Shown here: piece after piece, positions 12,418-15,699 of the stretch | How the letters are laid out: each line of letters opens with the position of its first letter | How positions within the stretch are numbered: position 1 is the stretch's first letter | Source of the DNA: Candidatus Heimdallarchaeota archaeon B3_Heim | GTDB lineage: Archaea; Asgardarchaeota; Heimdallarchaeia; Hodarchaeales; Hodarchaeaceae | Reading direction: 5' to 3' | DNA length: 32,000 bases | Assembly (NCBI GenBank): GCA_003144275.1 | Contig: NJBF01000007.1 | Location: 9,994 to 41,993, forward strand | Position numbers and translations under genes: made by a program | The notes under the pieces: generated by a model | What the model was told of the DNA's origin: nothing | What the model saw: the letters and a program-made list of their open reading frames with translations, nothing else | Database searches by the model: none

Positions 12418-13419
12418 TTAATTATTTCCTTTATGTATTCTCTCATGATTTCCTGTAAGTTCCCGTGTTGTCCATAACAAGAAGAGCAATCCAAGGCCCA
12501 CTCCAAACCATAGAGTTGTGAAACGAATAACTAAGGTCAAAGCAACTGATTTTGTATATTTTACGTTAAGAAGATCGATAACCAGGAATTCTAACCCGCC
12601 TTCCATTAATCCTAACCCGCCTGGTAGGAATGAAATAGCACCTATAATGGAGGAAGTGGCATAAATAAACATAGCCATTTGGAAACTCATTTGTATGCCC
12701 AAGCTTTGCGCCACCAGCATAAAAGCTAAGCATTCACAGGCCCAACCTACCATTCCGAGGAGGAGTGCTCCAGTGAATACTGGTAAGCGAAAGGTGACAA
12801 TGACATCTGCACGAAAATTATCAACATATCCACCTAATTTCCGCCATGGTCCAAAGATAAGAATTCGTGAAAAAAAGTGATAGAGAGGATCGAATAAAAA
12901 TGTGATCACACCAATCATTACCAGAAAAAGAATTATTAGAAGGATAAAAAGATAATCTGAACTGAAACCCATTATAATAATACCAATTATTGATAATAGT
13001 GTGACGGCCAGTAAATCTATCAATCGTTCAGAGAAAGTTGATGCAAGCCCCTTTGAAATATCTATATTACTCCTTTTTTTCAGTAGTAAAGCACGGATTG
13101 CTTCTCCAGCTTTTGCGGGAGTTATTGCCAAAGCTAAACCAGCCATAAAGACTTTGAAGTTATATAGAGGGGGAATTTCTAATTTTAAACTCCTTGTAAA
13201 TAGAACCCATTTTAGAAATCTACATAGATAATTGAGAAAACTTAGGCCAAGTGCAATGAAAACTACTTCAACTGGAATCCCAGCTAAGTAGATAAGAAGT
13301 TGGTTCCGATTACTGATAAATATCAGAACTAAATAAACTCCTGCTCCCAAAATTAACCCAAATACAAAATTACGGAATGTAAAGATCTTACTATAAAAAG
13401 ATTCACTCTTTAATTCCAT
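12418..13419 (-). CDS. Lysylphosphatidylglycerol synthase TM-region / UPF0104 (flippase-like) membrane protein
   Basis: Multiple TM segments; FVFMAGLALAITPAKAGEAIRALLLKKR-type motif, SSIIGAISFLPGGLGLMEGGLEFL. Confidence 0.85.
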   Translation of the reverse strand: MELKSESFYSKIFTFRNFVFGLILGAGVYLVLIFISNRNQLLIYLAGIPVEVVFIALGLSFLNYLCRFLKWVLFTRSLKLEIPPLYNFKVFMAGLALAITPAKAGEAIRALLLKKRSNIDISKGLASTFSERLIDLLAVTLLSIIGIIIMGFSSDYLFILLIILFLVMIGVITFLFDPLYHFFSRILIFGPWRKLGGYVDNFRADVIVTFRLPVFTGALLLGMVGWACECLAFMLVAQSLGIQMSFQMAMFIYATSSIIGAISFLPGGLGLMEGGLEFLVIDLLNVKYTKSVALTLVIRFTTLWFGVGLGLLFLLWTTRELTGNHERIHKGNN

Positions 13420-13426
13420 AAGCTTC

Positions 13427-13615
13427 CCGTTCTGAAAGACTTACCCAAATCGGACATTTAGGGACAATTAAGATTTTTATGTTAATGATGCTAATTATCA
13501 CCAGTCGGTATTGGTGCTATTCTTCCTGCTTCCTCGACGCGTGCCTGTTGGTACACAGGTCTTACCGCCTCTCCACAGGCATTTAAGGTCTCCGCGGAAC
13601 TCTCGGCGACAGGAA
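13427..13615 (-). repeat. Right-end copy A: second, divergent copy of the tnpB 3' end / putative omegaRNA region
   Basis: Begins/ends with the same blocks as copy B: 24-nt CCGTTCTGAAAGACTTACCCAAAT (13427-13450) and cctctccacaggc[a/g]tttaaggtctccgcggaactctcggcgac[a/c]ggaa (13568-13615); encodes PVAESSAETLNACGEAVRPVYQQARVEEAGRIAP. Confidence 0.9.
13427..13615 (-). ncRNA. Putative second TnpB guide scaffold (omegaRNA-like), copy A, adjacent to the UPF0104 gene start
   Basis: Conserves the same hairpins with pair-preserving changes: TGCCT-GTGGAG-AGGCG (13566-13581), CCTGT-GTACCA-ACAGG (13544-13559). Confidence 0.5.
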
Positions 13616-13649
13616 TTATTAGGGGTTCCTTCTTTATAAAATCATCAAA

Positions 13650-13821
13650 CCGTTCTGAAAGACTTACCCAAATAAGACAGTTAAAAATAATTAGGAACAA
13701 TTATTACAAACCGTCCTTGGAGCTGTTCTTCCTGATTCATCGACGCGAGCCTGCTCAGATGCAGGTTTTACCACCTCTCCACAGGCGTTTAAGGTCTCCG
13801 CGGAACTCTCGGCGACCGGAA
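13650..13821 (-). repeat. Right-end copy B: 3' end of tnpB plus terminal region, tandem with copy A
   Basis: 24-nt CCGTTCTGAAAGACTTACCCAAAT at 13650-13673; core block 13774-13821; encodes PVAESSAETLNACGEVVKPASEQARVDESGRTAP. Confidence 0.9.
13650..13821 (-). ncRNA. Putative TnpB guide scaffold (omegaRNA/reRNA), copy B
   Basis: Position at the 3' end of tnpB; hairpins CGCCT-GTGGAG-AGGTG (13772-13787), CCTGC-ATCTGA-GCAGG (13750-13765), AATAATT-GTTCCT-AATTATT (13686-13705). Boundaries inferred only. Confidence 0.6.
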
Positions 13822-14971
13822 ATAGTCGGAACCGATAGATAACATAATAATTGGCTACATTGCACGCAGCATTCTGATCACGATCTAATACCAACCCACA
13901 TAACGGGCAATGAAAAACCCGATCAGCTAACGTTAGATCCTGCTGGTAATACAGGCAATTAGAGCATAATTTCGAGGAAGGAAACCAGCGATCGATCTCA
14001 ATCAACGTAGAACCATAGAAAGGTGCCTTATATGCGAGGAAACGCTGAAACAGACCATGTGAAAGATCGGCCCAATATTTACTCAGCTTCTTATTTTGCA
14101 TTAATCCTTTGACATATAAATCCTCGGTAACTATCACGCTGTGGTTTTTAGCCAGATAGGTAGAGGTTTGATGCAAAAAATTATGCCGTTGGTTTGTAAT
14201 TCGACGATAGAATTGCGCTAAGCGGAGGGCAGACTTTCGTTTATTATTTGAGCCGTTCTCTTTCCGTGAATGAGCTTTTGATAATCGACACTGTTTCCGA
14301 GCTTGACGGAGGAGGAAATTAGGTCGTGCGATGGGGATTCCAGAAGATAAGGCGGCAAAGACGGATAATCCTTTATCCAACGCAACGAGTGGGCCACCGT
14401 TTGGTTTACGATCCGGTTGTTCCTCTTTCACGGTAAGAGCCACAGACCAGCGATCCGCAGTCCGAGAGATCGTGGCACTCAGTATCCGTGCCGATACAGG
14501 TAAATTTGGCGTTTCTTTTAGCCGTAATTTCCCCAAACGAGGTAATTGGACCTGTTTTACCGCTGGAAAAAGGCGAACCACTCCCGTCAATCGAAAGCTG
14601 TCCTTACACTTGCCTTTTTTCTTGAATCTGGGCAATCCGACATAGCGGATGGTTCGGTTCTTTTTTCTTTGTTGATGATTGGTGAAGAAATTCTGATAGC
14701 CACGATCTAAGTCGCGGAGGGCCTCTTGCGGGACACATTTCGAGACCTCATACATCCAGGGAAAATCAGTGTTTTTCAAGCGATTTAATTCTTTATGTTG
14801 TTTTATAGCATCGGTATAACGAGCTGTACCTGTTTGCGTGCGATAACGTTGTTTTCGACTGGCTAATCCCCAGTTCCAGGTAAATCGTGATATACCTGCA
14901 CATTTGGTCAGTAGCGTCCGTTCCTTGTTATTTACACATAATTCGTACTTATATCCTCGTGTACGGAGCAT
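13691..14971 (-). CDS. tnpB: RNA-guided endonuclease TnpB (IS1341-type, OrfB_IS605 family)
   Basis: GPLVALDKGLSVFAAL (RuvC D), VIVTEDLYVKGL (E), zinc finger CSNC...CPLC, LDRDQNAACN (D), C-terminal SAETLNACGE motif. No tnpA in window. Confidence 0.95.
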   Translation of the reverse strand: MLRTRGYKYELCVNNKERTLLTKCAGISRFTWNWGLASRKQRYRTQTGTARYTDAIKQHKELNRLKNTDFPWMYEVSKCVPQEALRDLDRGYQNFFTNHQQRKKNRTIRYVGLPRFKKKGKCKDSFRLTGVVRLFPAVKQVQLPRLGKLRLKETPNLPVSARILSATISRTADRWSVALTVKEEQPDRKPNGGPLVALDKGLSVFAALSSGIPIARPNFLLRQARKQCRLSKAHSRKENGSNNKRKSALRLAQFYRRITNQRHNFLHQTSTYLAKNHSVIVTEDLYVKGLMQNKKLSKYWADLSHGLFQRFLAYKAPFYGSTLIEIDRWFPSSKLCSNCLYYQQDLTLADRVFHCPLCGLVLDRDQNAACNVANYYVIYRFRLFPVAESSAETLNACGEVVKPASEQARVDESGRTAPRTVCNNCS

Positions 14972-15699
14972 CCCTGACCATCCTTACTAGCACTCACTAA
15001 CATAACATAGCAATACTGATTGATTACGCGCTTTTCTTCTTATAAACCTACGAGGCCACGTGATCTAAATCAAAATTGCTAATATTCCGTTATTTTATTG
15101 TTAAAAGGTTAATTAGGTCATCACTGGAACTATAATCTCATGAGATCTGTTTATTTCTCTATTAATTATATCTTTTAGTCTCTCCTCCCTCTTCCTAAGT
15201 TCCATTGCTTTTTGTTTCCCTTTTCCCCTTGAAATTCACTTTTCCTATTTGTCTATAAATGTCTATATTTGGCTATTATTCAATAGATAGTTTACAACCC
15301 TACATTCCAGATCAAACGGGGTTCCTTTCCCTCATTTTAGCGTTAATAGGTTAACTAGCCCATCGTTTTATCTATAATCCAATGAGACAAATTAAATCCC
15401 CAGTCATTATTATAATTCATGTTCTGTCCCCGTTTCTTTCGTTGTTCTGTATGCTGTCTTAAACTTCCTCTTCGTCCTGTGTGTCCATAAATGTCGATAT
15501 CTATCCATTGATTCGCTAGCTATTATCAACCCTTTGAGTATCACTTTTAAAATGCAGATCAATGAATCACCATCAATAACCACTAAAAAATCCCTTCTGA
15601 GTTCTACCAGTGCATCATTTAGAAAGGATTTCTCTGACCTAGCAAATTTTTTTACCACAACCTACATCAAACATCATTTTTTTTGTCTCCTGATCGTCT

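Follow-up and report, generated by a model that had tools for sequence, protein, structure and literature searches.

In the window, a stretch of 32,000 nucleotides (nt) of contig NJBF01000007.1 from the Asgard archaeon Candidatus Heimdallarchaeota archaeon B3_Heim, the right end of a TnpB transposon is found twice in succession on the minus strand, behind a single intact gene for the nuclease TnpB. This arrangement very probably arose when one of two related IS607-family elements inserted into the other: element B, the carrier of tnpB, came to lie inside the left end of mini-element A. At the level of the sequence, the anatomy of the locus, the order of the events, the boundaries and the GG-core junctions are all established. 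That B is nested in A, and that the two right ends are not a tandem duplication, follows because the removal of 15297-13650 leaves exactly 458 nt, which align without gaps to uninterrupted mini-elements elsewhere. The parts of the locus, in the order in which they are read on the minus strand, are given below.

15298 to 15532, minus strand: 5′ part of mini-element A (left end, 235 nt), recognised by alignment to the left end of element B and to the related loci L097, L106, L107 and L108
13650 to 15297, minus strand: element B, a non-autonomous, tnpB-only IS607-family element; net insertion 1,648 nt, the removal of which restores the 458-nt mini-element
13691 to 14971, minus strand: tnpB, an intact open reading frame (ORF) of 426 amino acids (aa), identified by Pfam and structure alignment
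13650 to 13817, minus strand: putative guide-RNA scaffold B (omegaRNA, or right-end element RNA, reRNA), which overlaps the last ~40 codons of tnpB and stops at the right-end boundary
13612 to 13649, minus strand: rest of the left end of mini-element A, with a TATA-like box and the internal deletion junction
13630 to 13649, minus strand: putative guide B, TTTGATGATTTTATAAAGAA, a continuation of the left end of A directly past the right-end boundary
13427 to 13611, minus strand: putative guide-RNA scaffold A, the right end of mini-element A, with the frame of a TnpB C-terminal tail and no tnpB
13407 to 13426, minus strand: putative guide A, GAAGCTTATGGAATTAAAGA, host sequence directly past right end A

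The two right ends and their boundary

Copy B (13829-13650) and copy A (13623-13427) are direct repeats on the minus strand and are 81% identical. In the repeat search of the window, they appear as two matches, 13493-13623 versus 13699-13829 (131 nt, 81% identity) and 13427-13473 versus 13650-13696 (47 nt, 83% identity), and pairwise alignment joins these into a single continuous homology in which copy A has an insertion of 17 nt. Aligned globally, the copies are 81.4% identical over 172 aligned bases, and the longest identical stretches measure 24-29 nt. Copy B covers the last ~40 codons of the intact 426-aa ORF, and copy A is joined to no tnpB. Both copies end in the 24-mer ATTTGGGTAAGTCTTTCAGAACGG, which has exactly two matches in the window (13427-13450 and 13650-13673, minus strand); by chance none would be expected there, even with up to three mismatches. 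Directly past the 24-mer the sequences diverge, continuing as GAAGCTTATGGAATTAAAGAG after copy A and as TTTGATGATTTTATAAAGAAG after copy B.

Is the 24-mer the true end of the transposon? A scan of species-representative genomes with the TnpB protein gave seven close relatives (L001-L007, 77-88% aa identity), all of them in Asgard archaeal metagenome-assembled genomes (MAGs) annotated as Heimdall-, Hod- or Promethearchaeota, and 18 further loci came from a scan of metagenomes in which the final 20 bases of the repeat were the query. All 25 external right ends, together with the two window copies, stop at ...TCAGAACGG (one with ACAG) and have no mutual resemblance past it. The boundary is therefore well supported by comparison, since 27 copies share the terminus ...CAGAACGG and diverge immediately afterward. 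A candidate second tandem right end at one of these loci (L006:4122-4460, from a Promethearchaeota MAG) was rejected as an artefact of scaffolding around a run of N.

Much of this had been anticipated by an earlier note on the same DNA, made from the letters alone. It had described the 3′ end of tnpB and its downstream region as present twice in direct orientation, with coordinates that agree with the 81% alignment to within a few bases. It had also described copy B as fused to the intact gene and copy A as free-standing, and had quoted correctly the identical 24-mer and the sequences that diverge after it. Its proposal that the 24-mer is the right end is borne out by the external copies that terminate there too, and two complete scaffold-like units do stand in the same orientation behind one intact tnpB, as it had said.

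Mini-element A

Mini-element A begins with GGGTTGATAATAGC at 15532. From this base to 15306 the sequence aligns with the left end of the family, starting at its very first base; the locus has two left ends and two right ends. The second left end corresponds base for base to positions 1-237 of the left end of B, with a score of 116 against 29.5 ± 4.6 for shuffled sequences (maximum 47). The final GGG of this 5′ part (15300-15298) is the target or core triplet and could equally be assigned to element B.

The 5′ part of A tiles onto the first half of L097, L106, L107 and L108, which are uninterrupted mini-elements. When the two halves of A, 15532-15298 and 13649-13427, are rejoined, they give 458 nt, the exact length of L106 and L107, and they align with no gaps to L106 at 89.5% and to L107 at 90.8% identity. 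L097 is a metagenome locus with an element of ~468 nt, colinear with the upstream piece of the window plus the piece that follows copy B; this colinearity spans the junction of left end and TnpB tail (..CCTAAT..TTCCTGTCGCC) as well as the 17-nt segment specific to copy A. All four elements are colinear with A where B inserted and also over the internal deletion junction, ...CCTAATAA|TTCCTGTCGCC, which is common to all mini-elements, and all of their flanks differ. Together with the window copy they measure 458-468 nt and are 79-91% identical: both ends, no protein gene and independent insertions, as in a family of protein-less derivatives.

The small ORF at 13491-13700 was also used as a probe of the protein database and gave about a dozen ORFs of 53-91 aa with ..IWNVGFDDFIKKE..LIIPVAESSAETLNACGEAVRPVYQQARV.., which are taken as further A-type copies; L106, L107 and L108 are the loci of three of these matches. 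The peptide ..IWNVGFDDFIKKE.. corresponds to the DNA ..TGGAATGTAGGGTTTGATGATTTTATAAAG.., which is exactly the two halves of the window element rejoined. These comparisons identify copy A as the right end of a mini-element of 458 nt that is mobile and lacks tnpB. By the same comparisons, the internal deletion predates the insertion at the window site, because its junction and the overall length recur in four independent insertions, each with its own flanks; it was in this deleted form that the mini-element moved.

Two sets of matches were set aside. P0243 and P0250 cover 88% of the 69-aa ORF and had looked like more nested copies, but have N-termini (MIWNxGFDD) derived from uninterrupted mini-elements. 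P0134 and P0135, found on several contigs and considered as multiple insertions, are the same locus in related MAGs.

The ORF at 13491-13700 (minus strand) is annotated as the hypothetical protein CEE45_04065 (69 aa). It is a by-product; its reading frame combines the last bases of right end B with left-end sequence of A and the frame of the TnpB tail. Similarly, the "hypothetical proteins" of 53-91 aa in other Asgard MAGs (P0242-P0254) are by-products of uninterrupted mini-elements.

Other reduced forms of the family occur. At L083, L084 and L092, tnpB-less derivatives keep a scaffold-length tail and right end only (about 150-175 nt upstream of the right end), with deletion endpoints that cluster around the 5′ border of the scaffold, at TnpB residues ~371-388. 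A second and shorter type of mini-element, with about 150 nt of left end and about 80 nt of right end, is present at L085 and L094, and L081 and L086 retain just 50-80 nt of right end. At L082, a second short ..GGTATCAGAACGG motif lies about 20 nt past the right end (CGG|CGTGCAATAAAAGCCTAGGTATCAGAACGG) and may be the remnant of an older right-end tip.

Element B, its TnpB and the transposon family

Element B consists of a non-coding left end of about 326-330 nt, tnpB and the right end. The left end is shared by the family, and it can be aligned over ~330 nt upstream of the tnpB start in 8 full-length relatives, beginning with GGGTTG (15300 in the window). The protein has the domains expected of a TnpB, all well above their Pfam cut-offs: PF01385 OrfB_IS605 (69.3 bits, cut-off 30.5), PF07282 Cas12f1-like_TNB (69.2 bits, cut-off 26.3) and PF12323 HTH_OrfB_IS605 (45.4 bits, cut-off 21). 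It matches the ISDra2 TnpB structures 8bf8, 8exa and 8h1j end to end (E 9e-47). The RuvC triad is intact, with D199, E283 and D365 aligned to the catalytic D191, E278 and D361 of ISDra2; the CxxC...CxxC motif of the zinc ribbon is retained, and 426 aa is the length of TnpB in the relatives too. From these features, the TnpB of element B would be an active RNA-guided nuclease.

In the assembly collection this intact ORF is not recorded as a called gene, though the flanking ORFs of 69 aa and 333 aa are; in the source record, tnpB may be unannotated or marked as a pseudogene. A further observation concerns residues ~377-384, where an insertion of 8 aa relative to ISDra2 TnpB (YYVIYRFR) lies just upstream of the scaffold start. 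Its DNA, AATTATTATGTTATCTATC (13830-13850, minus strand), is AT-rich and conserved at the nucleotide level in the closest relatives; in full-length elements it could serve the guide RNA as an internal TATA-like promoter.

To which transposon family do these elements belong? At ~50% TnpB identity there are many bacterial relatives with an ORF of ~190 aa that ends at the tnpB start, and a Resolvase domain (PF00239, E 1e-18 to 3e-21) was found in all five of the bacterial upstream ORFs tested. Left junctions read ..GGG in 12 of 12 independent cases, mostly AGGG, and right ends read ..ACGG in 26 of 27, so that GG recurs at both sides. The vacant target of B is preserved in L106 and L107 as GT(A/G)GGG|TTTGAT, with ATGTGGGG|TTTGATGA, and the occupied site in the window reads GTAGGG-(TTGTAAAC...CAGAACGG)-TTTGATGA. 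GG at both junctions is as expected for a GG-core crossover, presumably by a serine recombinase. The family is placed in IS607 by its GG junctions, its AG-rich NGGG flanks, the TnpA beside its bacterial relatives and its RAGATH-18-like cores.

An IS607-family element described elsewhere has a strict requirement for GG, a 5′-TGGG target and the same TGGG as the target-adjacent motif (TAM) of its TnpB (10.1101/2023.11.20.567912); other IS607 TnpBs have the TAMs AGGAG or GAGGG and guide RNAs that contain a RAGATH-18 core (PMC11061315). The family in the window agrees with these reports, and its TAM would be NGGG-like. TTGAT, the TAM of ISDra2, occurs within GGGTTGAT at several left ends and was considered for this role; it was rejected, as the vacant site of B ends in GGG and has no TTGAT upstream.

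Guide-RNA scaffolds

When 23 right ends are aligned, a sharply conserved block of about 170-185 nt emerges, starting with GTCGCCGAGAG. The RNAalifold consensus of these sequences has 95.9% of its cells paired, against 27-46% with slid partners, and four compensatory pairs; none of 500 shuffles reaches the observed covariation score. The structure modelled on RAGATH-18 performs just as well, with 93.9% paired and six compensatory pairs. These right ends have a structured 3′ RNA scaffold that ends at the transposon boundary, with variable sequence beyond it.

Rfam, at gathering thresholds, has no match in the whole window. With permissive settings, RAGATH-18 (RF03064) matches end to end in copy A (13523-13579, 24.2 bits) and in copy B (13729-13785, 24.0 bits), with E 0.014-0.016 in a small search space, and the signature CCUGUGGAG...CGAUGAAGCAGGAA is kept in both. 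By this measure, the two scaffolds resemble RAGATH-18 and are not formal members of it.

Both scaffolds look intact. Of the columns without variation among the other 22 sequences, scaffold A agrees with the family in 70 of 70, and of those conserved at 90% or more, in 100 of 103; for scaffold B the figures are 70/70 invariant and 101/102 near-invariant columns. The 17 extra bases of copy A sit in the apical loop of a hairpin, the length of which varies across the family.

The TATA-like box of A, TTTTATAAA at 13641-13633, lies about 22 nt upstream of the first conserved base of scaffold A. The motif TTTATAA is the same in all 8 full-length left ends, as TTTATAAAG is in all 5 mini-elements; in the mini-element the box stands near the scaffold because of the internal deletion. 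Archaeal promoters have their TATA box centred near -26. The spacing thus predicts a transcript that would begin at scaffold A. Element B ends at 13650, upstream of the box, and because B entered there, the putative promoter-scaffold unit of A was left undisturbed. Read-through from tnpB would be a possible second source of RNA A.

Guides and their predicted targets

Guide B matches the vacant mini-elements: L107 at 20 of 20 positions, where it adjoins ATGTGGGG (TGGGG), L106 at 19 of 20, and L097 and L108 at 17 of 20. It has no second match in the window. Guide A occurs once in the window; the downstream gene has its start codon (13419-13417) within it. It is plausible that one TnpB would be loaded with both guide RNAs.

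What would such guides be good for? In the accepted model of TnpB function, the nuclease cuts the vacant donor site and recombination restores the element (Meers et al. 10.1101/2023.03.14.532601; Zedaveinyte et al. 10.1101/2023.11.20.567912). Guide-only elements that rely on a TnpB encoded elsewhere have already been described (PMC10691335; Meers et al. 10.1101/2023.03.14.532601). In the window, RNA B with TnpB would cut vacant A-type mini-elements (TAM ..GGG + TTTGATGATTTTATAAAG) and thereby favour the retention or the homing of B. RNA A, made from its own TATA box or by read-through from tnpB, would with the same TnpB cut a host allele that lacks A and thereby favour the retention of A. The mobility of both elements would depend on a serine-recombinase TnpA supplied in trans.

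A bolder suggestion can be made. By means of its TnpB, element B could home by cut and repair into every vacant mini-element in the cell, while the nuclease also served the guide of the mini-element itself. A transposon with a nuclease and one with only a guide would then be hitch-hiking partners with two guides, and this could also be a natural route to the first scaffold-guide arrays. We consider this rather unlikely as a whole, and the dual loading of the nuclease, the homing of B through the mini-element family and the proto-array role are speculative.

Order of events and alternative explanations

Taken together, the comparisons show two steps. In the first, the 458-nt mini-element A, with a left end and TATA-like box fused by an old internal deletion to a scaffold and right end, inserted at ..AAAGGG, 7 nt upstream of a membrane-protein gene. 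Later, element B (1.65 kb) entered GTAGGG in the left end of A, in the same orientation, and left A in two pieces, 15532-15298 and 13649-13427. Read along the minus strand, the parts are now the front part of the left end of A, the left end of B, tnpB, scaffold B, guide B (which is the rest of the left end of A, with its TATA box), scaffold A and guide A (the 5′ end of the host gene).

How common is this state? L101 and L105 have one right end each, and in the 11 full-length relatives examined no second one turned up nearby. As a test for repeated homing, the flanks of nine other full-length elements were searched for A-type sequence, with scores at noise level only. The peptide created by the nested junction, MFLIIFNCLIWVSLSERF, is matched by nothing else in a collection of 5.8 billion proteins. 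To judge from these searches, the nested state is seen only in the window locus.

The headline of the earlier note had been a tandem duplication: a local doubling of the tnpB 3′ end and the right end, after which the copies diverged. The copies are indeed adjacent, direct, 81% identical and closed by the same 24-mer. However, copy A has a left end of its own (15532-15298) upstream of tnpB, the flanks without B form a complete 458-nt element that is found uninterrupted elsewhere, and the 33 nt between the copies are left-end sequence and not tnpB. Moreover, copy A resembles the mini-elements (86-91%, with 86% for the right end of L097) more than it does copy B (81%), and copy B in turn is nearer to L001 (right ends 95% identical) than to A. 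With copy A being part of a separate, older and tnpB-less mini-element, a duplication is extremely improbable, and the headline does not hold; two of the alternatives of the same note, a nested insertion and a retained guide-only unit, give the correct account when combined. Its third alternative, a decayed second tnpB, would make copy A a full-length element reduced by deletion in place, before or after the arrival of B. Copy A does keep an in-frame TnpB C-terminal tail (tblastn 64%, residues 383-424), and the 458-nt form must ultimately descend from a full-length ancestor. However, four independent insertions have this length and this junction (..CCTAAT..TTCCTGTCGCC), and so do about a dozen further copies known from their small ORFs; since every other mini-element copy carries the junction, decay at this site is very unlikely.

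An assembly artefact, in which reads of two elements were misjoined through their shared right-end sequence, deserves attention in a MAG, where repeats are the classic cause of such errors, and the related locus L006 does have an artefactual duplication around its N run. A misjoin, however, would merge the copies; it would not create two right ends plus half a left end that restores exactly 458 nt with GG junctions. The longest identical stretches are just 24-29 nt, the contig measures 105 kb and synteny is normal on both sides, so that this origin is also hardly credible. A different proposal is that selection has shaped the locus into a two-guide unit, an incipient, proto-CRISPR-like omegaRNA array kept since TnpB benefits from two guides. 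Scaffold, guide, scaffold and guide do follow each other on one strand behind a nuclease gene, with both scaffolds intact, and CRISPR arrays have been proposed to arise from repeated omegaRNA segments (PMC10691335). Yet transposition explains the arrangement fully, both "spacers" are mere flanks of each insertion, the arrangement is unique among the 11 full-length relatives and the nested-specific peptide lacks any other match in the protein collection. An array would be expected to have at least three regular, near-identical repeats with unrelated spacers, conserved in relatives; the window has two units at 81% identity, and selection for two guides is accordingly judged most improbable.

Several points weigh against the nested insertion, or against its functional side. 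The source is a MAG. A TnpA (serine recombinase) gene is absent from the window element and beside the close archaeal relatives L001-L007; because this resolvase-type ORF is lacking, the archaeal elements must, by their gene content, be non-autonomous. The RAGATH-18 matches, at 24 bits, fall short of the gathering score of 44.9 and so of membership. We infer the transcription of either RNA and the promoter role of the TATA-like box, and likewise the use of scaffold A by the TnpB of B, the two scaffolds being 81% identical. Last, the comparison with an empty site in related genomes, which the earlier note had proposed as a check, succeeded in part. L099, from a related MAG (74% protein identity), has the gene order response regulator, NTP-transferase, small ORF and LPG-synthase-like gene, with no element, and its intergenic spacer of 175 nt comes within one base of the 174 nt left in the window once 15532-13427 is removed. 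The syntenic, element-free site and the spacer length thus support an insertion; the L099 spacer is too diverged to be aligned base by base and to confirm the insertion point of A at the nucleotide level.

Relation to known systems

The components of the locus are all of known kinds: IS607-type TnpB elements, protein-less omegaRNA carriers and nested insertion sequences. What is notable is the completeness of the reconstruction and the fact that the guide of B is, by its match, aimed at another mobile element.

The closest parallels are the IS607 TnpBs, namely ISFba1 TnpB (PMC11061315) and the TnpA_S/TnpB of CboIStron (10.1101/2023.11.20.567912). The window element shares with them the domain set and the RuvC triad, a guide RNA that would run from the tnpB 3′ end to the right-end boundary with a RAGATH-18-like core (CCUGUGGAG...CGAUGAAGCAGGAA), GG at both junctions, an AG-rich ..GGG beside the left end and, in the nearest bacterial relatives, a resolvase-type TnpA. 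Unlike these systems, it is archaeal (Asgard), has no tnpA in or near it and has a long non-coding left end (~330 nt). Its scaffold overlaps the coding end of tnpB, whereas the reRNA of ISFba1 starts 13 nt downstream of the gene (PMC11061315), and as a RAGATH-18 match it stays under the Rfam threshold.

Standalone omegaRNAs and palindrome-associated transposable elements (PATE), to the extent that the former (Altae-Tran et al.) are summarised in PMC10691335 and as described by Meers et al. (10.1101/2023.03.14.532601), are the counterparts of mini-element A: both ends and a complete scaffold, no protein gene, many independent sites and a presumed need for TnpB and TnpA in trans. Mini-element A differs in being IS607-type and Asgard, in the internal deletion that sets a TATA-like box about 22 nt upstream of the scaffold, and in that the window copy was itself hit by a tnpB-carrying relative. 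With the ISDra2 TnpB-omegaRNA system (IS200/IS605; 8EXA, 8H1J, 8BF8), there is protein homology end to end (E 9e-47), with the same catalytic residues, a guide RNA that overlaps the gene 3′ end and a guide taken from the flank past the right end. Unlike ISDra2, which has a Y1 TnpA, a TTGAT TAM and single-strand hairpin ends, the window family has the GG-core junctions and ..GGG flanks typical of IS607. As for omegaRNA and CRISPR arrays (PMC10691335), the likeness lies in two tandem scaffold-plus-guide units downstream of a nuclease gene. The differences are that the units are only two, 81% identical, of different origins, brought together when one element transposed into another, without duplication or spacer acquisition, and not conserved in relatives.

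For an IS607-type TnpB family of Asgard archaea, the locus offers a resolved anatomy that includes the exact ends, the guide boundaries, the target site and a probable TAM (..GGG), and it leads to the recognition of a widespread 458-nt mini-element, guide-RNA-only, in Heimdall/Hodarchaeales genomes. It is also a natural example of how nested transposition, not duplication, can put two scaffold-guide units in tandem behind one nuclease. This bears on ideas about the origin of guide arrays, and use or selection of this particular pair is not implied. For the experimentalist, two natural scaffold variants with matched targets are at hand for testing an archaeal TnpB. For the annotator, small "hypothetical proteins" such as CEE45_04065 are flagged as element by-products.

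Host locus

The gene next to the elements is the following.

12418 to 13419, minus strand: LPG_synthase_TM / YbhN-like membrane-protein gene (Pfam PF03706, E 9e-41)

Its protein is 100% identical to one from Ca. Heimdallarchaeota archaeon B3_Heim, encoded on a contig of 105 kb. The ATG of this gene is 7 nt downstream of the end of mini-element A, which has the same orientation. The original upstream region has been displaced by 2.1 kb by the elements, and the messenger RNA of the LPG-synthase-like gene probably now begins inside the element, which has its TATA-like box at 13641-13633. With such a start, the guide-RNA scaffold would act as a structured leader of the transcript.

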